64,000 bases of DNA from the IMG/VR virus record IMGVR_UViG_2718218139_000001. One strand, given 5' to 3'. This document shows, piece by piece, positions 45 to 39,373 of this stretch. The position numbers were made by a program, and so were the translations under genes. The notes beneath the pieces were generated by a model. The model saw nothing but the letters and a program-made list of their open reading frames with translations. It was not told where the DNA came from and did no database searches. Source of the stretch: a virus. Its lineage: Duplodnaviria; Heunggongvirae; Uroviricota; Caudoviricetes. Positions within the stretch are counted from its first letter, which is position 1. Every line of letters starts with the position of its first letter.

Positions 45-70
45 AAGACTAAAACGTTGGTTTGGGGGAA
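45..70 (+). other. crossover site 1 of tail-fibre cassette array (hix/gix/cix-like 12-2-12 site)
   Basis: AAGACTAAAACG-TT-GGTTTGGGGGAA; AAAC-NN-GGTTT signature; right half-site identical in all eight sites. Confidence 0.5.
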
Positions 71-538
71 GGCTCAGCATTGCCCGTTGGCGTGCCCGTT
101 CCGTGGCCCTTAGAAACACCGCCAACGGGGTGGCTGAAATGTAACGGAGCAGCATTTTCTTCTGAAATGTATCCCAAACTGGCAAAGGCCTACCCCACCA
201 ATAAATTACCGGATTTACGGGGAGAATTTATTCGCGGCTGGGATGATGGGCGCGGGGTGGATGCGGGACGTGCTTTATTGAGCATTCAGACAGGAATGCT
301 GGAAAAGCACCGACATATTGTTGTAGCCAATGATGGTTACGACACAAAAGATGAATGGGAGCTGGCGACAATTTTCAAAAAAACATACACACAAGGACGG
401 GGGCTTGATGCCTCAAATACAGGAGGGAATTTGATTCCATCACCGACACTTCATTCTCGAGGGAGTATTGGTAATACTGGCGGGAGTGAAACCCGTCCAC
501 GAAATATCGCATTTAATTACATCGTAAGGGCGGCATAA
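62..538 (+). CDS. promoterless tail-fibre tip cassette 1 (alternative C-terminus of tail fibre)
   Basis: ORF track; conserved N block GEGSALPVGVPVPWP..LPDLRGEFIRGWDDGRG, variable core, conserved C block ETRPRNIAFNYIVRAA shared with 3' end of gene at 4005-6584. Confidence 0.8.
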   Translation: MGEGSALPVGVPVPWPLETPPTGWLKCNGAAFSSEMYPKLAKAYPTNKLPDLRGEFIRGWDDGRGVDAGRALLSIQTGMLEKHRHIVVANDGYDTKDEWELATIFKKTYTQGRGLDASNTGGNLIPSPTLHSRGSIGNTGGSETRPRNIAFNYIVRAA

Positions 539-557
539 AAACGTTGGTTTGGGGGAA
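532..557 (+). other. crossover site 2 (hix/gix/cix-like)
   Basis: GGCATAAAAACG-TT-GGTTTGGGGGAA; overlaps stop codon of cassette 1. Confidence 0.5.
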
Positions 558-1010
558 GGCTCTGCACTGCCTGTTGGTGTACCTGTTCCGTGGCCCTCAG
601 CCACTCCGCCAACGGGGTGGCTGAAATGTAACGGAGCAGCATTTTCTTCTGAAAAGTACCCAAATCTGGCAAAGGCTTACCCTACTAATAAATTGCCGGA
701 TTTACGCGGTGAATTTATTCGTGGCTGGGATGACGGACGTGGTGTGGATGCCGGGCGACAATTATTATCTTCACAGGGGGATGCAATAAGAAATATTGAG
801 GGGTTCGCCGATGGCGGGATTGGCATGTCTTTTGATGCAATCAGAGGGGCTTTTTATGATGCAGGAACACGATCTGCGAGAATGCCGAATAACACAACTG
901 ATATAGGCAAAACCGATGACCTTGGATTCGACGCCTCTCGTGTCGTGCCAACAGCTAATGAAAACCGTCCTCGTAATATTGCCTTTAATTATATCGTAAG
1001 GGCGGCATAA
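549..1010 (+). CDS. promoterless tail-fibre tip cassette 2
   Basis: ORF track; same conserved flanking blocks, different variable core. Confidence 0.8.
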   Translation: MGEGSALPVGVPVPWPSATPPTGWLKCNGAAFSSEKYPNLAKAYPTNKLPDLRGEFIRGWDDGRGVDAGRQLLSSQGDAIRNIEGFADGGIGMSFDAIRGAFYDAGTRSARMPNNTTDIGKTDDLGFDASRVVPTANENRPRNIAFNYIVRAA

Positions 1011-1029
1011 AAACGTTGGTTTGGGGGAA
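1004..1029 (+). other. crossover site 3 (hix/gix/cix-like)
   Basis: GGCATAAAAACG-TT-GGTTTGGGGGAA. Confidence 0.5.
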
Positions 1030-1488
1030 GGCTCGGCACTGCCCGTTGGTGTACCTGTTCCATGGCCCTCAGCCACACCGCCAACGGGGTGGCTGAAATG
1101 CAATGGTGCAGCATTTTCTTCTGAAAAGTACCCAAATCTGGCAAAGGTTTACCCTACTAATAAATTGCCGGATCTACGGGGCGAATTTATTCGCGGCTGG
1201 GATGACGGGCGGGGGATTGACTCTGGCCGTAATTTATTATCTGCACAGAATGATGCAATTCAGAATATTGTTGGTTCTTTCGGGCGTACTCAGCTTTTTA
1301 GAGATGTACTTAGTTCAGGGCCATTTAGTCAACATGGTCAAGTATTATCTACAGGCCTAAAGGAAACGGAAATTATTGAGGGTTATGGCTCTTATAACTG
1401 GACATTCGACGCCTCTCGCTCAGTTCGTACAGCATCTGAAACCCGCCCCCGTAATATTGCATTTAATTACATCGTAAGGGCGGCATAA
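1021..1488 (+). CDS. promoterless tail-fibre tip cassette 3
   Basis: ORF track; conserved flanking blocks. Confidence 0.8.
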   Translation: MGEGSALPVGVPVPWPSATPPTGWLKCNGAAFSSEKYPNLAKVYPTNKLPDLRGEFIRGWDDGRGIDSGRNLLSAQNDAIQNIVGSFGRTQLFRDVLSSGPFSQHGQVLSTGLKETEIIEGYGSYNWTFDASRSVRTASETRPRNIAFNYIVRAA

Positions 1489-1507
1489 AAACGTTGGTTT
1501 GGGGGAA
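1482..1507 (+). other. crossover site 4 (hix/gix/cix-like)
   Basis: GGCATAAAAACG-TT-GGTTTGGGGGAA. Confidence 0.5.
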
Positions 1508-1927
1508 GGCTCTGCACTGCCTGTTGGTGTGCCCGTTCCGTGGCCCTTAGAAACACCACCAACGGGCTGGCTAAAATGCAATGGTGCAGCATTTTCTTCT
1601 GAAATGTATCCCAAACTGGCAAAAGCCTACCCCACCAATAAATTACCGGATTTACGCGGTGAATTTATCCGTGGCTGGGATGATGGGCGCGGGATTGATG
1701 CGGGACGTACCCTGCTTTCAGGGCAGGATGGTACAAGTTTTTCTCATTACGGAGGTAATTTCGACATTGGGTCTGGTCATTCAATCAATAACTATGACCA
1801 AATTGTTTCTAACCAACCAGGATTTTCCCGTTTTTCATTTGCAGGGCCTTCACGAGGTGATGGGGTTAATTATGTAACCATTCGTCCTCGTAACATTGCG
1901 TTTAATTATATCGTAAGGGCGGCATGA
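1499..1927 (+). CDS. promoterless tail-fibre tip cassette 4
   Basis: ORF track; variable core related to cassette 6 (..NQPGFSRF..). Confidence 0.8.
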   Translation: MGEGSALPVGVPVPWPLETPPTGWLKCNGAAFSSEMYPKLAKAYPTNKLPDLRGEFIRGWDDGRGIDAGRTLLSGQDGTSFSHYGGNFDIGSGHSINNYDQIVSNQPGFSRFSFAGPSRGDGVNYVTIRPRNIAFNYIVRAA

Positions 1928-1946
1928 AAACGTTGGTTTAGGGGAA
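1921..1946 (+). other. crossover site 5 (hix/gix/cix-like)
   Basis: GGCATGAAAACG-TT-GGTTTAGGGGAA. Confidence 0.45.
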
Positions 1947-2441
1947 GGCTCGGCGCTGCCCGTTGGTGTACCTATTCCATGGCCCTCAGCCACACCGCCA
2001 ACGGGGTGGCTGAAATGCAATGGTGCAGCATTTTCTTCTGAAAAGTACCCAAATCTGGCAAAGGTTTACCCAACGTTAAAATTACCTGATTTACGCGGTG
2101 AATTTATCCGTGGCTGGGATGATGGGCGCGGGGTGGATGCTGGCCGCGCTTTGCTTAATTGGCAGCCACACACAATTTTGGACCATGCACACTATATGGA
2201 ATTATGGACAGGGGACGGACTCGCCGCAGGAAGTGCACGGGAAGGCGTAAATCCAGGAATACTAGCTACATACGGTGACGGGGGAATAGTTAAAACGGAC
2301 GAACCCGGTCATAAGGTGCCTTCCTCACTACGAGCTATTAGCTCTCGTAGTGTTAAACGTTATGGTGAAATTAGTGGAAATGTAGGTACAGAAACTCGCC
2401 CTCGCAACGTTGCATTTAATTATATCGTAAGGGCGGCATAA
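1938..2441 (+). CDS. promoterless tail-fibre tip cassette 5 (no start codon; open frame from site to stop)
   Basis: manual translation in frame from the crossover site gives GLGEGSALPVGVPIPWP...ETRPRNVAFNYIVRAA without stops; ORF track only reports 2133-2441 because no start codon precedes. Confidence 0.7.
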   Translation, partial: LGEGSALPVGVPIPWPSATPPTGWLKCNGAAFSSEKYPNLAKVYPTLKLPDLRGEFIRGWDDGRGVDAGRALLNWQPHTILDHAHYMELWTGDGLAAGSAREGVNPGILATYGDGGIVKTDEPGHKVPSSLRAISSRSVKRYGEISGNVGTETRPRNVAFNYIVRAA

Positions 2442-2460
2442 AAACGTTGGTTTAGGGGAA
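2435..2460 (+). other. crossover site 6 (hix/gix/cix-like)
   Basis: GGCATAAAAACG-TT-GGTTTAGGGGAA. Confidence 0.45.
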
Positions 2461-2880
2461 GGCTCGGCGCTGCCCGTTGGTGTACCTGTTCCATGGCCCT
2501 CCGCCACACCACCAACGGGGTGGCTGAAATGTAACGGAGCAGCATTTTCTTCTGAAAAGTACCCAAATCTGGCAAAGGTTTACCCCACTAATAAATTGCC
2601 GGATCTACGGGGCGAATTTATTCGAGGTTGGGATGATGGACGAGGTGTGGACAATGGGCGAGCATTATTAAGCAGCCAAGAGGCTACAAACTTTTCTCAG
2701 CGTGCCGGAAATATAGGCGATGGTGCAGGGCACGCAATTAATTTTCATGATGGCATCGTCGGAAATCAGCCAGGATTTTCACGATTTAATTTCACCAGTA
2801 ACTCTGTAGGTGATGGTATAAATTTTGTTGCTGTCAGGCCGCGAAATATCGCATTTAATTACATCGTAAGGGCGGCATAA
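2452..2880 (+). CDS. promoterless tail-fibre tip cassette 6
   Basis: open frame from site to stop at 2878-2880; ORF track 2596-2880 is its 3' part. Confidence 0.7.
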   Translation, partial: LGEGSALPVGVPVPWPSATPPTGWLKCNGAAFSSEKYPNLAKVYPTNKLPDLRGEFIRGWDDGRGVDNGRALLSSQEATNFSQRAGNIGDGAGHAINFHDGIVGNQPGFSRFNFTSNSVGDGINFVAVRPRNIAFNYIVRAA

Positions 2881-2899
2881 AAACGTTGGTTTAGGGGAA
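2874..2899 (+). other. crossover site 7 (hix/gix/cix-like)
   Basis: GGCATAAAAACG-TT-GGTTTAGGGGAA. Confidence 0.45.
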
Positions 2900-3388
2900 G
2901 GCTCGGCGCTGCCCGTTGGTGTACCTATTCCATGGCCCTCAGCCACACCGCCAACGGGGTGGCTGAAATGCAATGGTGCAGCATTTTCTTCTGAAAAGTA
3001 CCCAAATCTGGCAAAGGTTTACCCAACGTTAAAATTACCTGATTTACGCGGTGAGTTTATCCGTGGCTGGGATGATGGGCGAGGGATTGACTCTGGTCGC
3101 TCTATTTTAAGCGAGCAAGGATATGCAACGGAGGATCATGCTCACGGATTACCGTCAAAATCAACCGTAGCAACTGACCGCTCAATTAATTTCTACTTTG
3201 ACGAGGCATGGGCTACTAGTGGTAATACGGGAGTTATCAGATGGGGGAACACAAGCGATGCAGGATTGCCAGCCCCTAATTATGGAACTTTTAAAACATA
3301 TAAACAGTCCGTAGCTAATTTAGGTACTGCTGGCTTAGAAACCCGCCCTCGTAATATTGCATTTAATTATATTGTGAGGGCGGATTAA
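2891..3388 (+). CDS. promoterless tail-fibre tip cassette 7
   Basis: manual translation in frame: conserved N block ... ETRPRNIAFNYIVRAD then TAA at 3386-3388; no start codon so absent from ORF track. Confidence 0.65.
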   Translation, partial: LGEGSALPVGVPIPWPSATPPTGWLKCNGAAFSSEKYPNLAKVYPTLKLPDLRGEFIRGWDDGRGIDSGRSILSEQGYATEDHAHGLPSKSTVATDRSINFYFDEAWATSGNTGVIRWGNTSDAGLPAPNYGTFKTYKQSVANLGTAGLETRPRNIAFNYIVRAD

Positions 3389-3393
3389 TTATA

Positions 3394-4005
3394 TCAACTG
3401 GCTGTAGAAAGTTGTTTTTCAGGCCAGTTGAGATCTGGTGCCGTGGTTAAATCCATCGCGTTCAGCTCGTCTATATAATCTAGCACGGAGTTAAGCTGCG
3501 TGGTTTCTGCCTGCGTCAACTTCCGTCCAGCCCGTAATTTCAACTGAATCAGACTAATGGAATCCATCGCAGTATCAATCAATGACTGACGTTTTGTTTC
3601 TGCTGCCTCTACAGCTGCACTATGTTGAGCCTCAGTATCAACCACCCATTTCTCTCCATCCCATTTGTCGTATGGTGTTAGCGGGGCGATAGTGGTTGTA
3701 TTTTCCGGATAGTCACCCAACACCGTGATTTCTTCGGGATTCCCAGTGTCAATGCTATAGACAGTTTCGCCACGATGATCTGGCACATACTCCCATGAAC
3801 TTAAATCCTCTGAACGGAGAATCGCATAACCTGCTTTATGTGAGCCTGGAGCATCCAAACAAGAATTTGCCGGAATACCAACGCCAACAGCAAGATATTC
3901 AGTTGATGCAGAAATATATTCCCGATTACCACCATCATAGTTATAAACGATAATGTTTCCTGCCTGTATGGCTATAAGTTCGCTATTTAATATCGCATTA
4001 TCCAT
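3394..4005 (-). CDS. tail fibre assembly chaperone (Tfa / Mu-U-like)
   Basis: 203 aa; N-terminal ..YNYDGG..EY.. and C-terminal Tfa-type motifs; start ATG overlaps stop of fibre gene (TAATG). Confidence 0.8.
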   Translation of the reverse strand: MDNAILNSELIAIQAGNIIVYNYDGGNREYISASTEYLAVGVGIPANSCLDAPGSHKAGYAILRSEDLSSWEYVPDHRGETVYSIDTGNPEEITVLGDYPENTTTIAPLTPYDKWDGEKWVVDTEAQHSAAVEAAETKRQSLIDTAMDSISLIQLKLRAGRKLTQAETTQLNSVLDYIDELNAMDLTTAPDLNWPEKQLSTAS

Positions 4006-6584
4006 TATGCTGCTCTCACAATATAATTGAAGGCAATGTTACGTGGGCGGGTTTCATTCCCCCCAGATAACTCCGTTCTGTATTGACTGGTAAATTTACC
4101 ATTAATCGCTCCTTGCCGGACGGCGTTATCTGTCGACAACAGACTATCCCCCCCTCTGTCATTTGGCACCAATACCGTGTTATCCCACGCGTCCCATGAC
4201 CGAATATTATGATAATGACTTCCTGTTAACCACCCCTGTATGCTTAAGATGACCCTTCCCGCATCCACACCTCGCCCATCATCCCAACCACGGATAAACT
4301 CACCGCGTAAATCCGGTAATTTATTGGTGGGGTAGGCCTTTGCCAGTTTGGGATACATTTCAGAAGAAAATGCTGCACCATTGCATTTTAGCCAGCCCGT
4401 TGGTGGTGTTTCTAAGGGCCACGGAACGGGCACACCAACAGGCAGTGCAGAGCCTTCCCCCAAACCAAGGTAATCAAGAACGCTCTGAATACTGGTCTTA
4501 CCAAGAATGGCGCGTCCAACACTTGTCAATGCAGTTAACGCGGCACGATCAACACCTGTGAAATAAGGGAGTTTATCTGCTGCTGTAGCTAGTGCCGCTA
4601 GAGCAGTGAGCGTAGCGTCTGCCGCTTGCTTTCCATTAGCCAAATCATATGCAGCCTTGACAGCTTTCGGTGTGGCGGCCAGCACTTCAGACGTGCTGTT
4701 AGTGGCACTACTGAGCTGAGTGATGCCTTTCGCTGTCAATGAAGCTGTTGGCACACCAGTGATCTGATTCCAGGGATGTGTATGACTGGATGGTGCCTTT
4801 CCGGCTGCTAGATCGTATGCAGCTTTAACCGCTTTTGGAGTTGCAGCTAATGTTTCAGAAGTGCTGTTGGTGTCGCTACTGAGCTGAACTATCCCTTTTT
4901 GTGTCGTGGTTGCATCCTGGGCTGTATACTTCCCGTTAGCCAAATCATATGCAGCCTTGACAGCTTTCGGTGTGGCGGCCAGCACTTCGGACGTACTGTT
5001 AGTGGCACTACTGAGCTGAGTGATGCCTTTCGCTGTCAATGAAGCTGTTGGCACACCAGTGATCTGATTCCAGGGATGTGTATGACTGGATGGTGCCTTT
5101 CCGGCTGCTAGATCGTATGCAGCTTTAACCGCTTTTGGAGTTGCAGCTAATGTTTCAGAAGTGCTGTTGGTGTCGCTACTGAGCTGAACTATCCCTTTTT
5201 GTGTCGTGGTTGCATCCTGGGCTGTATACTTCCCGTTAGCCAGGTCATATGCAGCCTTGACAGCTTTCGGTGTGGCGGCCAGCACTTCAGACGTGCTGTT
5301 AGTGGCACTACTGAGCTGAGTGATGCCTTTCGCTGTCAATGAAGCTGTTGGCACACCAGTGATCTGATTCCAGGGATGTGTATGACTGGATGGTGCCTTT
5401 CCGGCTGCTAGATCGTATGCAGCTTTAACCGCTTTTGGAGTTGCAGCTAATGTTTCAGAAGTGCTGTTGGTGTCGCTACTGAGCTGAACTATCCCTTTTT
5501 GTGTCGTGGTTGCATCCTGGGCTGTATACTTCCCGTTAGCCAGGTCATATGCAGCCTTGACAGCTTTCGGTGTGGCGGCCAGCACTTCAGACGTGCTGTT
5601 AGTGGCACTACTGAGCTGAGTGATGCCTTTCGCTGTCAATGAAGCTGTTGGCACACCAGTGATCTGATTCCAGGGATGTGTATGACTGGATGGTGCCTTT
5701 CCGGCTGCTAGATCGTATGCAGCTTTAACCGCTTTTGGAGTTGCAGCTAATGTTTCAGAAGTGCTGTTGGTGTCGCTACTGAGCTGAACTATCCCTTTTT
5801 GTGTCGTGGTTGCATCCTGGGCTGTATACTTCCCGTTAGCCAGGTCATATGCAGCCTTGACAGCTTTCGGTGTGGCGGCCAGCACTTCGGACGTACTGTT
5901 AGTGGCACTACTGAGCTGAACTAATCCCTTTTGCGTTGTGCTTGCATCCTGCGCCGTATATTTGCTTTTCGCCAGATCGTAGGCTTTTTTAACTGCCAGC
6001 GAACTCGCAGCAACATCACTTCTGGTACTGGTTACAGAGTCTGAAATATCAATGCCGATCGTGCGGTTGATACGCTCGGATGTATCAATCATCTCTTGAG
6101 TAATGGTAGATACGCCAGCAGGGATATTCACCGTACAAACCAGCAGTTCCCCATCACCTAACTGATATGAATCGGTATAGGTTCTGGCAACAAATTCAGC
6201 TGCATGAATATGTGACGCGGTATTCACCTGATAGGTATCTTCTCCAAGAAGGTATCTTCCCTTCAGCACAATTGCATATTTCTTGCCTGCGTTAAGTGCA
6301 AGAGAGATATCCTTACGATGCTGAATAGTTACCTGGTAGAATTCACCAATATCCACTGACGCCGCGCCAGCGGTTTTATCTCCATCCACTGAGGTGATTA
6401 ACAGGTTCATTCCACCGCCAGGCTTAGGCAAGAAACCAGCATAAAATCCCGGGTCAACAATTCCCCTGAATTTTCGGTTTAGAGCGGCTGACAGATATGG
6501 TTCGTGGTATTGCACATCAGCCACCAGAGCCAACGACTCGGGTGATGGGTAAGTAACCGATGTAACAACTGTAACGTCATTCAT
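4005..6584 (-). CDS. tail fibre protein (P1 S-like): constant part, repeat shaft and currently expressed tip
   Basis: ORF track 4005-6671; start placed at ATG 6584 preceded by AAGGA; C-terminus carries the same conserved blocks as the cassettes. Confidence 0.85.
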   Translation of the reverse strand: MNDVTVVTSVTYPSPESLALVADVQYHEPYLSAALNRKFRGIVDPGFYAGFLPKPGGGMNLLITSVDGDKTAGAASVDIGEFYQVTIQHRKDISLALNAGKKYAIVLKGRYLLGEDTYQVNTASHIHAAEFVARTYTDSYQLGDGELLVCTVNIPAGVSTITQEMIDTSERINRTIGIDISDSVTSTRSDVAASSLAVKKAYDLAKSKYTAQDASTTQKGLVQLSSATNSTSEVLAATPKAVKAAYDLANGKYTAQDATTTQKGIVQLSSDTNSTSETLAATPKAVKAAYDLAAGKAPSSHTHPWNQITGVPTASLTAKGITQLSSATNSTSEVLAATPKAVKAAYDLANGKYTAQDATTTQKGIVQLSSDTNSTSETLAATPKAVKAAYDLAAGKAPSSHTHPWNQITGVPTASLTAKGITQLSSATNSTSEVLAATPKAVKAAYDLANGKYTAQDATTTQKGIVQLSSDTNSTSETLAATPKAVKAAYDLAAGKAPSSHTHPWNQITGVPTASLTAKGITQLSSATNSTSEVLAATPKAVKAAYDLANGKYTAQDATTTQKGIVQLSSDTNSTSETLAATPKAVKAAYDLAAGKAPSSHTHPWNQITGVPTASLTAKGITQLSSATNSTSEVLAATPKAVKAAYDLANGKQAADATLTALAALATAADKLPYFTGVDRAALTALTSVGRAILGKTSIQSVLDYLGLGEGSALPVGVPVPWPLETPPTGWLKCNGAAFSSEMYPKLAKAYPTNKLPDLRGEFIRGWDDGRGVDAGRVILSIQGWLTGSHYHNIRSWDAWDNTVLVPNDRGGDSLLSTDNAVRQGAINGKFTSQYRTELSGGNETRPRNIAFNYIVRAA
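4455..4480 (-). other. crossover site inside expressed tail-fibre gene (inverted relative to cassette sites)
   Basis: TTCCCCCAAACC-AA-GGTAATCAAGAA on + strand; homology with cassettes begins exactly at the core; outer half-site TTCTTGATTACC resembles hixL half-site. Confidence 0.55.
4635..5918. repeat. about 4.3 tandem copies of a near-identical 300-bp coding repeat in the fibre shaft
   Basis: sequence lines 4681-4920, 4981-5220, 5281-5520, 5581-5820 are essentially identical; encodes repeated LAATPKAVKAAYDLA units. Confidence 0.9.
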
Positions 6585-6595
6585 CAAGCATATCC

Positions 6596-7030
6596 TTATG
6601 CTGTAGTCGAGTTTATGGCCATAACTGCGGTATATGTTTTGCCCACATACAGCGAGTCTTCTTGGACACAAATAATGGCGATTGGCTTATTCTCGTTATC
6701 CAGAACAACCAGAGTGTTGAATGGGTAGTTTTTCCCTTCCTGCAACTGACTTTGATCAAGGTCCATTCGGACAGTAATTATCCCGCCTGAGTAGGTTGGG
6801 ACGAGGTTGATGGTGCAAAATTGACTGGTCAGTTCTGCCAGATCGAAAGCCTTTGGCAGTTCTCCAATCTCATAAGTGCCATCTCCTTTCTTAGTAACCA
6901 GTGAACTGGTACCGAAAACGGCCTTGCTGATTAAAAATCGAGAGCCTTTGTTAATGGACGATTCAGCGCGCCGCTGATAGTAATAGTCCAACAACTGACT
7001 CTTATAGAGGTTTGTTGAGACGTCAGACAT
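6596..7030 (-). CDS. tail fibre-associated structural protein (P1 R-like by position)
   Basis: ORF track, 144 aa, directly upstream of fibre gene. Confidence 0.55.
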   Translation of the reverse strand: MSDVSTNLYKSQLLDYYYQRRAESSINKGSRFLISKAVFGTSSLVTKKGDGTYEIGELPKAFDLAELTSQFCTINLVPTYSGGIITVRMDLDQSQLQEGKNYPFNTLVVLDNENKPIAIICVQEDSLYVGKTYTAVMAINSTTA

Positions 7031-7108: not shown

Positions 7109-7948
7109 TCACGCATCGCTATCCAACAGCAAATCATCTGCGCGGGTGCGATCAAACGTAGGCGTTGCTTTCACAATAGTGCCGCCCGGCGTTGCAGTGA
7201 TCGGGGCGTTAATCGACGTAACTTCAGTAAGCGAAGTTGTATCCGAAGTTTCAAACCAGCAGAATGCTTTTTCGGTATCAGAAATCTCATTCAAAGTGAT
7301 CATGTCGGCCTGTTCATTTACAACAACCGACAAATAGAGCGTAAGCCCATCAAACACTATATGCAGTGGCAGTAGAGGCTTTACGAACTGATTAAACTTT
7401 CTGAGAATTTCTTCTGTAATTGCGGACTGATCTATCGTTCCAGTAATACCCATTGTCCGGGCCAAGTCGTTTATGGGAATACTGATCATTCCTCTGGAAG
7501 TCAGAAACATCTCGCCGAATGTGCCGCCGGTGGTTTCCAGTGTGCTTTCTGGAATCAGGACCGTGCCATAGGGATGACGTTCAAAGTCCACCGGAGCATA
7601 TATGGGATCCCATAAAACCGATATACCGTTAAATTCGCGATAAATTGTCTGGTTTATAGGGCGTTCAGTACCCTTAAAATGGATCTCATCAAACCGCTGT
7701 TGTAACAACATCGGAACGGAAGATGAATTCGACGTTCTGATAGTAAAAAACTGGCCAAGTTCATTTGTCCTAGTCTCCAGATCCTCCTTGCTCATGGAGA
7801 AAATAGACTTCCGGTTGGTAATTCGCTCCAACCATGGGTCAACAAAGGTGTCCATCATTGACTGAACCAAATCAGCCAATGATTTATAAAGTAATGACTT
7901 TTGCTTAGCTGATGTAAGCCGGTTATTAAACCAGGAACGCTGCATCAC
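7109..7948 (-). CDS. baseplate/tail structural protein (P1 gene 16 region)
   Basis: ORF track 279 aa in tail operon. Confidence 0.5.
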   Translation of the reverse strand: MMQRSWFNNRLTSAKQKSLLYKSLADLVQSMMDTFVDPWLERITNRKSIFSMSKEDLETRTNELGQFFTIRTSNSSSVPMLLQQRFDEIHFKGTERPINQTIYREFNGISVLWDPIYAPVDFERHPYGTVLIPESTLETTGGTFGEMFLTSRGMISIPINDLARTMGITGTIDQSAITEEILRKFNQFVKPLLPLHIVFDGLTLYLSVVVNEQADMITLNEISDTEKAFCWFETSDTTSLTEVTSINAPITATPGGTIVKATPTFDRTRADDLLLDSDA

Positions 7949-9378
7949 TCCTCCTCATACGAAATATTAAAGGTGGAGTTTTCTGTATCCAGATAAACGA
8001 AATCGTAAAAGCCGTTGGACTCATTCCACTCGACAAATTCCAGATAAAAGTCGCGGAAATAACCCAGCGTTTCGATAAATGCCCAAACGTCTTTTTTCTT
8101 GATTAGGATGTACTTGCCGACACGGTTCGGATCAAAGAAAGTTGAGTCACGCCCAAATTTTGTTTCCAGTGCCGACTTCAGCTCATCAGTCACGTTCTCA
8201 ATGGTCAGGCTTGCCGATATCCGCCCAGTGATGGTGATCTTAAAGGGTAGTTTTCTGACCTCTTTATACGAGAATTTCTTGTTCAACTCATTCGGCACCT
8301 TCTTAAAGGCGGCTAGGATCATTTCTTCAAGCTCTGACTGGCTTTTGTTTGGATGCCATCCTGAAATAAATATCTTATTGATATTCCGAACATTATAAGC
8401 ACCATCTAATTTCTCTTGCTGGCCTTCGCCCCATGCCTTTACCCAGGACAGTCCCGGGATGTTACGCACCAGAAAATACGTATAGTCCCCGCCCCATACG
8501 ACCTGATCATCATAGGCAAGGTAATATTGTGCACGGTTACGTGTGATCTCCGTTGTTTCAGCATCGGTACCTGCGGTTATAGGTGTCGTTGTCTTAACTG
8601 AAATCAAATTAGCTAAATTAGCCGCAGAATCAACAGGAGTCAGGTTTTGGCCAGCAACCAGGGTTATATCGCCGTTGGTGCACCATACCTTAAGCGTAAT
8701 TGTCGAGCCTTCTGGCGGTATTTGCCCAATTAGCCCATCGCCGAATCGGACACCCAACTGTTCGGATGGTTTATAAAACTCAACGTAGACCTGGCTTTTA
8801 CTACCAGCTAACCGGAACATTGTGCTGGAAGACCACTGCGTGGTCTTACCATCGGTCGTCACGAATACTTCCAGCTTATAGCAGACAGCAGTGAGAGCCT
8901 TTGATAACACGACTTCCAGAAATTCTTTGGCAGCCGTAACGGTATATGTCACCTCCTGGATTTCCAACTGTGCCACTTCTACCGTACCGGTGCCGTCAAC
9001 CAACCTGCATACATCCATAGTCATGTAAGGGTACTGGTCGTCAGATATTAAAGGCATGTTTTTGGGAATTACCGCTGGGGCATCTTCACTTGTGGCGGTG
9101 ATCTCAATCATCCCCGATGACGGTGTTGGCTTGGTACCAACGTAACTATTCGTTTCTGCCGCTGCCAGGATAGAGGAACGCCGCGTCGCGGTCGATATAA
9201 AGCCTTCAGCCAGCGCCGCATCGGCATACTGAAAGCACCTGTAGACAATCTGGGTAATAAACAATGTCAGCATCGAGACAAATTGAGAGCCGACAAACTT
9301 CGACCAGAATGAATCTTTCTCGACAAGCTCTTCAAACTCTGCACGAATACTGTCTTTAGTCGGTGTTGTTTTACTCAT
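7945..9378 (-). CDS. baseplate protein (P1 BplA-like by position)
   Basis: ORF track 477 aa, start overlaps upstream gene. Confidence 0.5.
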   Translation of the reverse strand: MSKTTPTKDSIRAEFEELVEKDSFWSKFVGSQFVSMLTLFITQIVYRCFQYADAALAEGFISTATRRSSILAAAETNSYVGTKPTPSSGMIEITATSEDAPAVIPKNMPLISDDQYPYMTMDVCRLVDGTGTVEVAQLEIQEVTYTVTAAKEFLEVVLSKALTAVCYKLEVFVTTDGKTTQWSSSTMFRLAGSKSQVYVEFYKPSEQLGVRFGDGLIGQIPPEGSTITLKVWCTNGDITLVAGQNLTPVDSAANLANLISVKTTTPITAGTDAETTEITRNRAQYYLAYDDQVVWGGDYTYFLVRNIPGLSWVKAWGEGQQEKLDGAYNVRNINKIFISGWHPNKSQSELEEMILAAFKKVPNELNKKFSYKEVRKLPFKITITGRISASLTIENVTDELKSALETKFGRDSTFFDPNRVGKYILIKKKDVWAFIETLGYFRDFYLEFVEWNESNGFYDFVYLDTENSTFNISYEEE

Positions 9379-9734
9379 AGCACCACGTCCTGTGTGATAG
9401 TTATATCCCTGATACGAATGGATATTTTCAACTTATCAAAAGCATCTCCCTCGGCTACTGACAAGCCAGAAATCGGTATGTCAGGTAAATCTACCGTCAG
9501 TTTTTGCAACAGCATTGCCTCAACCGCAATTTGAACATGCGACAAGTTGGTCGGTTCGTGTTTAAACTGCGGTAAAACATTGCCCCATGACGGATCCCCG
9601 TATACCTCACCCTGATAAGTGTTTAGCCACTCATATAAACGAGCGCCCCAGGCCTCCTCCTGGGACTCATACGTTTTTACGCCGGATAACTCCAGCGTCA
9701 GCAAAGGATCAATTTCGTTATTGTTGGCCATCAA
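9375..9734 (-). CDS. small baseplate protein, possibly gp25/W-like
   Basis: ORF track 119 aa, overlapping starts/stops with neighbours. Confidence 0.4.
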   Translation of the reverse strand: MMANNNEIDPLLTLELSGVKTYESQEEAWGARLYEWLNTYQGEVYGDPSWGNVLPQFKHEPTNLSHVQIAVEAMLLQKLTVDLPDIPISGLSVAEGDAFDKLKISIRIRDITITQDVVL

Positions 9735-12700
9735 TCAACTCTCGCGTAGTCATTCATCAACGGATCATCAATTGACAGTGGTACCGTGCGCATAACGCCC
9801 GGCTGAGGCGTGCTGACCTTTACGACAGTTCCCTGGCCTTTCGCCGAGTCTTTGGTGTGCTCTTCAATCCTGGCAAGCAATGAGGTCATCTGCGCAAACA
9901 GCCGCTTCGTTTCACCATCAAGTGAAACGGTATTATCAGCCAACTGCATTGTCGGCTTGGCACCGGAGCCGCCAAGGTCACTAATAACCTGTCCGTCTAT
10001 CTGCATACGACCGGTTGGTTGCTGCAAATCGTTGGCGGCAGTCGTCACCTGGGACGTGGAGGCTGGTTCAAGCGCATTATTTTTCCGCATCCCCGGCGAG
10101 TTGCGGAGTTTATCGAATAGTCCATCAATCCCCATTTGTGCGCCGAGTTGGTCAAAGTAACTTGAGTTGCTGGCCACCGGACGCGCCTCTTCAACTGGCA
10201 TCGGAGTATCAACATACACATTGCCAGCTGCTGTTGCGGTCCCCTTCCCTCGTGCACGTTCTTCGAGCGTTCCCTGAACGACTTCCCGACGCATACCCCG
10301 GCCATTCATGAATTTGTTGACCAGATCGTTAACGCCAACAGCATTGCCGATTTTGTCTACCAGACCGCCTTTCTCAAACGGGCTATCACCAGGGGTAAAC
10401 GCCAGGCCAGTAGACTGATCGATAACGGCGTTATCAGGTATCTTTTCGTAAATTGCTGGTGCGCTATGATCTACCTTAGAGCCATAAACGGCACCATTAT
10501 TGAGCATCTGCTGATACCCTCTGACACGAGTAACATATTCGCCGGTACCTGCGACTACTCTCCCCTTATCAACATGCCCCATACCAGCATGATAGGCAGC
10601 TATTGCACGACCCTGATCACCGTTATAACGGTTCATCAGCATACTTAGGTATCTGGCGGCACCATCAGCTGCTTTTCGTGTATCCATGGCATCAGCATCG
10701 CTGAGTCCAAGATCCTCCCTTGTACCTTTAGTGATCTGAAAAGCCCCAAGGGCAGATGAAAGTTTGTTCCCGTTTTTGTCTACTGGATTTCCAGTTCTCT
10801 GGCCTGCACTAGACTCTGCGGATGCAACTGCTGACAGAATCCCTTTTTCAAGCCCATACTTACGTTCAAGCTCATCAAAATAATCGGCATTGTCAGAAAT
10901 CCATTGGTATCCGGCAGCATTTAATTTTGGCAAAGAAACATCCTTGCCATTGTTAAATCGACGTTTATCTATCTCATATGCACTTAATGCTTCCTCCTTA
11001 CCTGTAGCAGACTGCCCCAAGGCAGCATCAATTGTTTGTGCTGCTTTATTTCCTGTTTCTACGGCATTTGCATTGATAATCTGATTAGCAGTTTCTTTAA
11101 CTGTTTTATTGCTATCTTTCGCCATATCCAGAGCCGCATTTATCACGCGGGCAGCAATATTAGTCTGTTTGGCATCGGATTCAGTTTTAGAATCAGATGT
11201 CCCCTGGTGGCTATTAACCGGAGCTTTTAACTCTGGAGTGATTTCTTTCGCATTAGCCTCGCCGATCGGATTGGGTATTTTTGATACAATCATTGCCGCA
11301 GGGGTATTTTTAACGGCATCAACCGCTGCATCTAATGCTTTACCTGGTAAATTTTTAACCCCATCCCAAATATTACCAGCCGCCTCTTTAATGTGTTTCC
11401 CTGGGTTCTTAATGAAATCAATTGCACTATCAATTGCATCACTGAAAACCTGTTTCAGGTTATCGACAGTAAAGAAGTCTTTGATGGCATCCAGCTTTTC
11501 AAGCAGCTTATTAGATGTATCGCTAAACCATGCTGAAACAGCATCACCAATCTTTGCTGTGTAATCATCGAACTTGGTAGAAATGGTGTCGCCAAGGTTA
11601 GAAATATATGTTTCTAAGTTGGTAATCCCACTATCAATGGCCAGGGCAATACTTTCCGTCGAAAATGATTGCAACATATTGCCGATATCCTCAAATCCAA
11701 GTGATTTGAGAACCTCACCAATGGCGCTGCTAATACCAGATACCAGTCCCCCCATATCAAGAACATTAGCTAACGTATAAGCGGCTTTTTGCTGGAATGA
11801 TGGATCTTGTCCTGATTTAAGCCCAAACGCTCGACGTTGCGCTTCTGTATCATTCCAACCGGTTACCGCATCATAAATACCTCCAGCCACTGTGCCGACT
11901 AGGGGAATTGCGCGTAACGCCCCTTTACCAACTGCCTTTAATCCAAGTTTACCTGCTGCCCGGGCAGCCAAATCTCCGCCTTCATGGGCGAGAGTCTTCT
12001 TGCCACCACCGCGTAGCATTCCTACAAGTTTCTTTGCCCCCAGAGCGCCAAAAGCGAGTGCTCCAGCTTTTTTCAGCATGCCACGCCCCATTAACAACGA
12101 CGCGACGCCACCGGCCCCCTTCCCTAACAGGCTAAATAATTTGGACAGCAAGCCGCCCTTCTTTTTCCCGGTGTTTTTGGCTATCTGATCAAGGGCGCTG
12201 AGAATCTTGTCATTGCCCTCTTTAATTTCGCTGGTCTGATCCTGAAGTTCCTGAACCGTCCGTTTTTGGGTGTTAACCTGAACGACATCGGCACTATTTT
12301 GCGATTTACGCCTAAAAAAACCTTTTCTACGGCTGTTATCGTCATTGCCACGAATCACATCGGCAATAGACTTTCTGGCACCATTAAGCGATCCACCAAC
12401 TTCTTTTGATATCCCGCCAAGCTCCTTCCCTGCGGCCCACAATGGACCAGCAACGGCATAACCTAACGCATCGACGGCACGAGTCTCTGAAGGGTTACCT
12501 ATGCCTTCAGCTACTTTTGACAGTTTTTTTAATAAACCTGATTCAGCATTTAGACGCTCATCATCCTCTTTTCGCCTGGCCTTTTCTGCTCGTTCAGCAC
12601 GGGCATCTTCCGCTGCGGCCTTACTCCCTGACTTTCCAATAAAACGACCACGCGCATCGCGTTGGTTTTGGCTTTTTTGCGCACCGCCTTTTTGACCGAA

Positions 12701-13105
12701 CATTTCGCGAGCGTGTTCGGCTGCTTCGGTCCGTTGCGCCTTTACATCCTCTGGTATAGCCTTCCTGCGTCGTTTTTTACCATTTGGTGTGGTTGATTTG
12801 GCCCGCTGTTCCTGTTGAGCAACATCTTCCTGAACTACACGAGAAACGTCCCCTAAATTAAGCCGTTTCATTGCGTCAACAATAGGGTCTACTGATGGCG
12901 CTTTGGCCACAAAGTCAGGCCGGGAATTTTCGATTGTGTGATTTAATGCCGACACGCTGCGAGAGACAGGATCAACAGTAGCAACTCGCCCACCTTTCAA
13001 ATCTTCAACAGCTTCCCGGATACCAGCAAGCTCTTCCAGCTCTTTTGCGCTGGCGGTTTCAACTGTCCTTATAACATCGTCAATGTTGGCGTTTTTTCTT
13101 TCCAT
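9731..13105 (-). CDS. sit: Sit, tape-measure-like injection protein with soluble lytic transglycosylase domain
   Basis: 1124 aa; SLT motif GAFQITKGT...AAYHAGMGHV; long low-complexity Gly/Ala/Lys-rich N half. Confidence 0.8.
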   Translation of the reverse strand: MERKNANIDDVIRTVETASAKELEELAGIREAVEDLKGGRVATVDPVSRSVSALNHTIENSRPDFVAKAPSVDPIVDAMKRLNLGDVSRVVQEDVAQQEQRAKSTTPNGKKRRRKAIPEDVKAQRTEAAEHAREMFGQKGGAQKSQNQRDARGRFIGKSGSKAAAEDARAERAEKARRKEDDERLNAESGLLKKLSKVAEGIGNPSETRAVDALGYAVAGPLWAAGKELGGISKEVGGSLNGARKSIADVIRGNDDNSRRKGFFRRKSQNSADVVQVNTQKRTVQELQDQTSEIKEGNDKILSALDQIAKNTGKKKGGLLSKLFSLLGKGAGGVASLLMGRGMLKKAGALAFGALGAKKLVGMLRGGGKKTLAHEGGDLAARAAGKLGLKAVGKGALRAIPLVGTVAGGIYDAVTGWNDTEAQRRAFGLKSGQDPSFQQKAAYTLANVLDMGGLVSGISSAIGEVLKSLGFEDIGNMLQSFSTESIALAIDSGITNLETYISNLGDTISTKFDDYTAKIGDAVSAWFSDTSNKLLEKLDAIKDFFTVDNLKQVFSDAIDSAIDFIKNPGKHIKEAAGNIWDGVKNLPGKALDAAVDAVKNTPAAMIVSKIPNPIGEANAKEITPELKAPVNSHQGTSDSKTESDAKQTNIAARVINAALDMAKDSNKTVKETANQIINANAVETGNKAAQTIDAALGQSATGKEEALSAYEIDKRRFNNGKDVSLPKLNAAGYQWISDNADYFDELERKYGLEKGILSAVASAESSAGQRTGNPVDKNGNKLSSALGAFQITKGTREDLGLSDADAMDTRKAADGAARYLSMLMNRYNGDQGRAIAAYHAGMGHVDKGRVVAGTGEYVTRVRGYQQMLNNGAVYGSKVDHSAPAIYEKIPDNAVIDQSTGLAFTPGDSPFEKGGLVDKIGNAVGVNDLVNKFMNGRGMRREVVQGTLEERARGKGTATAAGNVYVDTPMPVEEARPVASNSSYFDQLGAQMGIDGLFDKLRNSPGMRKNNALEPASTSQVTTAANDLQQPTGRMQIDGQVISDLGGSGAKPTMQLADNTVSLDGETKRLFAQMTSLLARIEEHTKDSAKGQGTVVKVSTPQPGVMRTVPLSIDDPLMNDYARVD

Positions 13106-39297: not shown

Positions 39298-39373
39298 GGC
39301 CCTTTAGCTCAGTGGTTAGAGCTGGCGACTCATAATCGCACGGTCACCGGTTCAAGTCCGGTAGGGGCCACCA
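39298..39373 (+). tRNA. tRNA-Ile2 (CAT anticodon, lysidine type)
   Basis: near-identity of anticodon arm GGCGACTCATAATCGC and overall sequence to E. coli ileX as recalled; CCA encoded. Confidence 0.75.

Follow-up and report, generated by a model that had tools for sequence, protein, structure and literature searches.

Gene S, which encodes the tail fibre in P1 and p15B, carries repeated elements in both, and it is with these two described systems that we compare the S gene studied here. The gene lies in a stretch of 64,000 nucleotides (nt), IMG/VR record IMGVR_UViG_2718218139_000001 (hereafter the window), which belongs to a P1/p15B-like phage-plasmid. It occupies positions 4005..6584 on the minus strand, codes for a protein of 859 amino acids (aa), and contains four nearly identical units of 300 nt in tandem, the number of which differs from one related plasmid to another. 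The p15B counterpart is Sc/SvM1 (Q47428), encoded in the Min inversion region. Its modules a, b and c are those of the window protein, and the two proteins do not differ outside the repeats, with identity extending over aa 1-322 and over ~210 aa at the C-terminus, where the linker, the crossover site and the tip are located. The order of the modules is nevertheless different, with p15B S reading a-b-c-a'-b-c-a' (two modules with an HxH motif, a 432-nt period and 747 aa), whereas the window protein reads a-(b-c)x4 with a 300-nt period. In P1, the constant segment of S (M81956) is the same gene in the same position, and it is annotated with "repeated elements a0, a1, b1, b2", of which a1 measures 132 nt and b1 and b2 measure 222 nt. 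The a1 element corresponds to module a of the window, but the two 222-nt b elements differ from the 300-nt b+c unit, and P1 switches a two-state C segment in contrast to the eight tips of the window. Sandmeier et al. reportedly described, in 1992 (J Bacteriol 174:3936), how sequence amplifications in the inversion regions of P1 and p15B gave rise to mosaics of repeated elements.

Fibres of less closely related viruses offer further points of comparison. The tip of T4 gp37 holds iron sites formed by HxH motifs (PDB 2xgf), and Tetart et al. are said to have described, in 1996, duplications of its "His-box". The window protein is similar to gp37 in that it has HxH-bearing fibre modules, which in T4 are reportedly open to tandem duplication as well, and in that its collar part matches 2xgf. 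In contrast, the T4 duplication is said to affect the receptor-binding tip and to alter specificity, whereas the duplication in the window is located in the constant shaft, and a PDB sequence search revealed no sequence homology between module c and the gp37 needle. In adenoviruses, the number of repeats in the trimeric fibre shaft sets its length and differs between related viruses. The adenovirus shaft, however, has an unrelated fold in an unrelated virus, with 15-residue repeats that are fixed in number for each serotype and are not known to be near-identical at the DNA level.

The long tail-fibre gene of Enterococcus phage EfV12-phi1 acquired variable numbers of in-frame tandem duplications during phage-host coevolution, and these were counted on long reads (PMC6365445). 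As in the window, the copies stay in frame, lie upstream of the receptor-binding part and vary in number between molecules. Unlike the array in the window, those of EfV12-phi1 have a 1.8-kb unit without a Pfam domain and appeared de novo under laboratory selection (PMC6365445); the S gene examined here has a 300-nt unit and represents standing polymorphism in natural plasmids. The principle is already known, both from the repeated elements in Sc and from tandem duplication in fibre genes, and the locus described below is therefore a well-documented instance of an expected form of variation.

The Repeat Array in Gene S

Tandem Repeats Finder reports one strong tandem array in the window, at 4629-5919, with a period of 300, 4.3 copies, 98% matches, 0% insertions or deletions and a score of 2512. 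A repeat search resolves this array into four full copies with 99% identity (4629-4928, 4929-5228, 5229-5528 and 5529-5828) and a partial fifth copy at 5829-5984. A repeat of such length and identity is far beyond chance. An origin in chance similarity or low complexity was considered and is ruled out by the score and by the complete lack of insertions and deletions.

The array runs on the minus strand, in frame within S, and all parts of the gene given below are on this strand. In gene order, unit 1 (5529..5828; aa 253-352) consists of module b (44 aa) and module c (56 aa, with the motif SSHTHPW), and unit 2 (5229..5528; aa 353-452) is identical to it at 300/300 nt. Units 3 (4929..5228; aa 453-552) and 4 (4629..4928; aa 553-652) each differ from units 1 and 2 at 4 positions. 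Unit 3 is a mosaic, with variants of the a-module at columns 234 and 240, terminal-type TT at columns 285 and 286 and otherwise internal-type variants, while the terminal unit 4 carries a 3' signature of T,T,T,A at columns 285, 286, 294 and 297. All differences between the units are synonymous, so that the array encodes four identical peptides of 100 aa. Every 100-aa peptide comprises two PF03406 repeats and a single HxH motif; SSATNSTSEVLAATPKAVKAAYDLA and HTHPWNQITGV each appear once per unit in the translation of S, and HTHPW appears once per module c. The partial copy, counted as "0.3", is module a (5829..5960; aa 209-252), which comprises 44 aa and a single PF03406 repeat. Its last ~90 nt are identical at 88/90 positions to the tail of every 300-nt unit, and it is due to this resemblance that repeat finders arrive at 4.3 copies. 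The sequence-only reading, made before this analysis, had proposed perfect 300-bp repeats at 4635-5918 in a fibre shaft. Its location, unit length and peptide motifs hold, but "perfect" slightly overstates the case in view of the 4 sites at which units 3 and 4 each differ.

The remaining parts of the protein place the array in the shaft, as that reading had assumed. Pfam finds 10 stretches of PF03406 (phage tail fibre repeat, Phage_fiber_2) with an E value of 5e-186 and 602.7 bits against a cut-off of 22, and these lie between a P1-type N-terminal domain and a C-terminal Collar domain (PF07484). Translation begins at the ATG at 6584 (MNDVTVV...). The N-terminal domain (5961..6584; aa 1-208) is recognized by its homology to S of P1, P7 and p15B, terminates in a first, degenerate fibre repeat and presumably attaches the fibre to the baseplate; over the 5' 776 nt, BLAST gives 95-96% identity to the S genes of P1 and P7. 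Downstream of the array, a unique linker (QAADATLTALAALATAADKLPYFTG...; 4469..4628, from aa 653), which is kept in the relatives and served us as a flank anchor, leads to the core of the invertase crossover site (TTGGTTTGGGGGAAGGCTC; 4450..4468). Motif counts and homology breakpoints mark this core as the boundary between the constant and variable parts inside S. It is followed by the currently expressed tip (4005..4449), a PF07484 collar domain identical to the p15B SvM1 tip, with matches to the T4 gp37 tip (2xgf) and to a short tail fibre (9cuy) in the PDB sequence search. With its N-terminal homology, its gene order and its internal crossover site, the product of S is identifiable by sequence as a P1/p15B tail-fibre protein, and it is of the p15B type, with Sc as its constant part and a tip of the SvM1 type.

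In the PDB sequence search, a single PF03406 repeat was matched, in Mu gpS alone (5yvq, 9ki1 and 8ju3), with 5yvq aligning to aa 191-255 of S. Module c had no match in the same search, and the remaining hits were chance matches to antibodies. The literature searched for PF03406, for the P1 fibre structure and for the lambda Stf structure yielded nothing on the fold or on variation in repeat number. The HxH motif is kept as H-x-H-P in diverged homologues, where the middle residue varies (for example HIH), and by analogy with the T4 gp37 tip it may bind metal as an axial site.

Unit Number Among Related Plasmids

To count units in relatives, 18 related plasmid loci were fetched, and all sampled DNA records are plasmids of complete level. 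The span of a BLAST hit counts units correctly up to four but under-reports longer arrays (e.g. in L016), and hit spans were therefore replaced by a unit-level blastn search with the 300-nt unit together with a flank-only query. The 18 loci have between one and five units. One unit is present in L003, L009, L011 and L017 (two of these from one strain), two in L008 and L010, three in six loci, four in five loci and five in L016. At the protein level the range extends further, with 2 to 7 HxH modules among the 120 best protein hits. Counts of HxHP in 79 complete P1-type S proteins, a list that was taken from score-ranked top hits and favours long arrays, were 2 (n=9), 3 (30), 4 (29), 5 (4), 6 (5) and 7 (2). 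The flank-only BLAST, run against complete E. coli genomes with hits sampled evenly along the ranked list, yielded 16 records in which both flanks were present, and the gaps between these flanks correspond to 1, 3, 4, 5 and 6 units as well as to other mixes of modules. Further arrangements include b-c-c, a trailing a' and the a-b-c-a'-b-c-a' order of p15B.

Over a flank of 3842 nt, made up of 600 nt of the Sc 5' end, gene R and baseplate genes, L005 with three units and L011 with one unit have 0 mismatches. The same is true of L008 with two units and L015 with four, and only 2 mismatches separate L002 with four units from L010 with two. Approximately 78% of plasmid pairs differ in unit count, and they do so in every divergence bin, which means that the unit count is without phylogenetic signal. 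It was proposed from the sequence alone that unequal recombination makes the length of the shaft variable, and that this is a second axis of variation beside the exchange of tips. At the population level this is borne out by the differing counts next to flanks with 0-2 mismatches and by the lack of a crossover site in the array. Uniformity among relatives, which had been named as the outcome that would speak against it, was not found: the 18 relatives have 1-5 units, and related proteins have as many as 7. Judged from these sequences, then, the variation in the unit number of the tail fibre is real at the level of the population.

The module from which the array is built has spread widely. At E<=1e-3 its family comprises 2789 representative proteins, a number that falls to 82 at E<=1e-30, and a single protein can have up to 16 matched stretches. 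Different phage types exchange the shaft array as a module. Five b-c units in a row, with 80-100% aa identity to the modules of the window, were also seen on two unrelated N-terminal domains (MGADKTNNIMTLSS... and MGNLNETEKWEE...), in proteins P0010 and P0020 (contigs of 93-249 kb) and in P0066 and P0099 (chromosomal contigs of 2.4 and 4.9 Mb).

Homogenisation of the Units

The units of one array resemble each other in a way that bears on their history. An alignment of 55 units from 19 arrays (the window and its 18 relatives) contains just 12 variable columns, and 54/55 units encode the same peptide. At the columns that vary between lineages (90, 168 and 240), every unit of an array has the identical variant in 11/14 multi-unit arrays. 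The last unit behaves differently and shows the 3' signature T,T,T,A in 19/19 arrays, in contrast to the non-terminal units, which mostly read C,C,C,G with a few mosaic versions. This pattern of single-nucleotide polymorphisms (SNPs) fits concerted evolution through recurrent rounds of unequal homologous exchange or of gene conversion, and the terminal unit would keep its own signature because an edge unit is protected by its unique flank. The recent expansion suggested from the near-identity of the units finds support here, both in synonymous sites that are nearly identical between units and in plasmid-specific synonymous SNPs found in every unit of those 11 arrays.

Tip Switching and the Repeat Array

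The array is a close neighbour of a second source of variation. The core of the crossover site has 8 matches in the window, as opposed to 0.02 expected, with 7 on the plus strand and 1 on the minus strand (the one inside S). The seven on the plus strand each head a silent alternative tip cassette, at 57, 544, 1016, 1494, 1933, 2447 and 2886, and the cassettes together occupy about 57..3387 on that strand. The region from 57 to 4468 is thus a multiple-inversion region of the Min/p15B type with eight alternative fibre tips. Homology to the relatives breaks off at query positions 450-465, by the crossover site in S. The invertase gene is outside the window and, in relatives, sits just to the left of the first cassette. 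Placed in the constant part of S, the array is separated from the crossover site downstream of it by ~160 nt, and no crossover site was found within the repeats (4629-5984), even with 3 mismatches allowed. Because of this position and the lack of a site in the repeats, the array is mechanistically separate from tip switching.

Two further observations concern the tips themselves. At 487-1698, Tandem Repeats Finder detects a 472-nt period with 2.6 copies and 80% identity among the silent cassettes, which are a series of diverged tandem duplications. In addition, only a single tail-fibre assembly gene is present for the eight tips, at 3394-4005 (minus strand) in the window, 4215-4826 (plus strand) in L007 and 5080-5691 (plus strand) in L010. 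It remains joined to one cassette and is inverted together with the invertible DNA, so that it points away from S in some of the inversion states.

How the Length Variation May Arise

The explanation that we consider quite probable is that the array is the repetitive shaft of Sc in a p15B-type S protein on a P1-like phage-plasmid, that its units are gained and lost by recombination or slippage and homogenised in the process, and that alleles of 1-7 units result. The protein is laid out as an N-terminal domain, module a, [b + c] x4, a linker, the crossover site and an exchangeable collar-domain tip. On sister plasmids or on the concatemers of lytic replication, misaligned units may undergo homologous recombination or replication slippage, with RecA-dependent exchange or slippage as the candidate pathways. 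Whole units would be added or removed in this way, and the reading frame would be kept because the units, nearly identical to each other, are in frame and each 300 nt in length. The same exchange may also homogenise the units by concerted evolution, while the last unit, next to unique sequence, retains its 3' signature. The outcome would be the S alleles of 1 to 7 units seen in natural E. coli plasmids. These alleles presumably produce fibres of differing length, independent of the invertase-driven choice of tip, with each 100-aa unit lengthening the trimeric shaft if the analogy with other fibres holds. Single cultures may then be heterogeneous in unit number, and this number may influence adsorption or host range.

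Several points weigh against this explanation. Duplicate or re-sequenced records of one strain (UPEC957C, F11, one pair of strain 405, TUM1886 and SHP24) agree in span or count between the two members of each pair, which means that on laboratory timescales the array is not hypervariable. That fibre length follows unit count is proposed by analogy, and in the PDB sequence search the only such repeat matched is in Mu gpS. Some of the public counts, especially those of single-unit arrays such as the ones in NZ_CP104791.1, NZ_OY754380.1 and NZ_CP148411.1, could reflect collapse by the assembler; collapse and true deletion predict one and the same sequence, and the single-unit arrays match it.

Taken to its end, the last point becomes a rival explanation in which the copy-number differences, possibly including the four units of the window, are artefacts of assembly, with near-identical 300-nt repeats collapsed or miscounted by short-read or hybrid assemblers, and the real number is uniform. 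The difficulty of assembling S is not in doubt. Two draft contigs of near-plasmid length end inside the array (L020, GCA_040964675.2, 94.5 kb; L021, GCA_947390085.1, 82.1 kb), the gene is a recurrent assembly break point, and the trouble with short reads that was anticipated from the repeats has materialised in these two drafts. Such artefacts would account for single-unit arrays, which have the sequence expected from collapse, but they do not produce the counts above the mode that are included in the range of 1-7. The exact 859-aa protein with four units is also present in NCBI (P0022; a UniRef cluster of 8 members), and four further 4-unit proteins with 98-99% identity to it come from separate contigs. 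Moreover, unit-specific SNPs are resolved within arrays, the Sanger-era sequence of p15B has a different module arrangement, and the DNA records sampled are complete-level plasmids. Taken together, these lines of evidence speak for real variation overall, and we regard a general assembly artefact as improbable. Horizontal replacement, in which whole Sc segments are imported from co-resident prophages or plasmids, has the mosaic nature of tail-fibre genes in its favour, as well as the wide distribution of the unit family (the 2789 representative proteins noted above) and the occurrence of the same b-c units behind two other N-terminal domains, including those of chromosomal prophage fibres. It is nonetheless very improbable as the source of the differences described here. 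Pairs with different counts have identical flanks directly next to the array, and in the internal units the SNP variants are those of the plasmid lineage in question, which fits local change better. Import and change in situ are compatible with one another, as both use homologous recombination.

The two other alternatives fare worse still. If the array were old and stable, the identity of the units would have to be maintained by purifying selection on the peptide. Selection does act at that level, as the 54/55 units with the same 100-aa sequence and the exclusively synonymous differences in the window imply, but selection on a protein cannot hold synonymous sites identical, and units 1 and 2 are identical over 300 nt. 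Lineage-specific synonymous SNPs are common to most or all units of a given array, and counts differ between plasmids with identical flanks, leaving this possibility largely refuted and with very little probability. The slimmest chance of all is that given to a programmed site-specific change, for example by an invertase of the Min/Cin type acting within the repeats. The location of S next to a multi-site inversion system with eight crossover sites made this worth considering. The crossover core, however, is confined to its 8 expected positions and is never found in the units with up to 3 mismatches, and the unit boundaries are without an inverted or dyad site. Serine invertases of the Min/Cin family favour inversion over deletion between direct sites (PMC11850598). 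The involvement of the invertase in unit number was rejected on the basis of the search for crossover sites inside the units.

Beyond gain and loss of units by recombination or slippage, unit number could be a selected and rapidly reversible "length dial" of the fibre beside the eight-way shufflon of tips. The thickness of the O-antigen or capsule would select among mixtures of 1-7 units, which would form by unequal exchange assisted by RecA or phage Ref and be sorted by dimer resolution. We consider this idea rather unlikely. If it were true, the host-range repertoire would be two-dimensional, with length as one dimension and tip as the other.

Neighbouring Genes and Other Features

Gene S is part of the order R - S - tail-fibre assembly gene, close to baseplate genes. 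Upstream of S is a homologue of P1 gene R (6596..7030, minus strand), identified by BLAST to R of P1 and P7; its counterpart in L020 encodes a protein with PF26881 (Phage_P1_tail_fiber_R). Downstream, the tail-fibre assembly (chaperone) gene (3394..4005, minus strand) is recognized by PF02413 with an E value of 3e-30. A Baseplate_J gene is assigned by Pfam at 7945-9378. The P1-type plasmid maintenance region extends from 28525 to 31300 and includes parA (28525-29721, minus strand) and a repA gene of the Rep3 family (30279-31139, minus strand), which is flanked by iteron arrays at 30088-30168 and 31198-31300. The relatives are ~95-kb plasmids that MOB-suite classifies as non-mobilizable and as IncY or IncHI1B.

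Four tRNA genes are located at 37611-37857 and 39298-39373, namely Asn-GTT, Tyr-GTA, Thr-TGT and one with a CAT anticodon. P1 presumably carries one tRNA gene fewer than the window, and the Tyr gene would then be the extra one. A further variable region was found in the SLT/transglycosylase gene (9731-13105, minus strand), where a patch of ~600 nt (~10438-11047) is unaligned in 14/18 relatives by blastn. Identity on either side of the patch is mostly 97-99%. The alignment continues through it in three relatives, and one locus has an insertion sequence that interrupts it upstream. The patch is a mosaic variable segment in the gene for a large tail protein.

Implications

Phage-plasmids of the P1/p15B type are frequent in E. 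coli and in many cases have resistance genes, and the behaviour of their S genes has practical consequences. The gene is a predictable point of breakage or collapse in short-read assemblies, and the lengths of S alleles in databases need the support of long reads. The typing and engineering of delivery vectors derived from P1 should also consider fibre-length alleles. At the same time, the natural series of 1-7 units is a ready allelic set with which the relation of fibre length to adsorption through the O-antigen or capsule can be tested. For the biology of this group, the finding means that the tail fibre of natural P1/p15B-type phage-plasmids varies along two independent lines, through the invertase-driven choice of the tip and through the gain and loss of 100-aa shaft modules by recombination.

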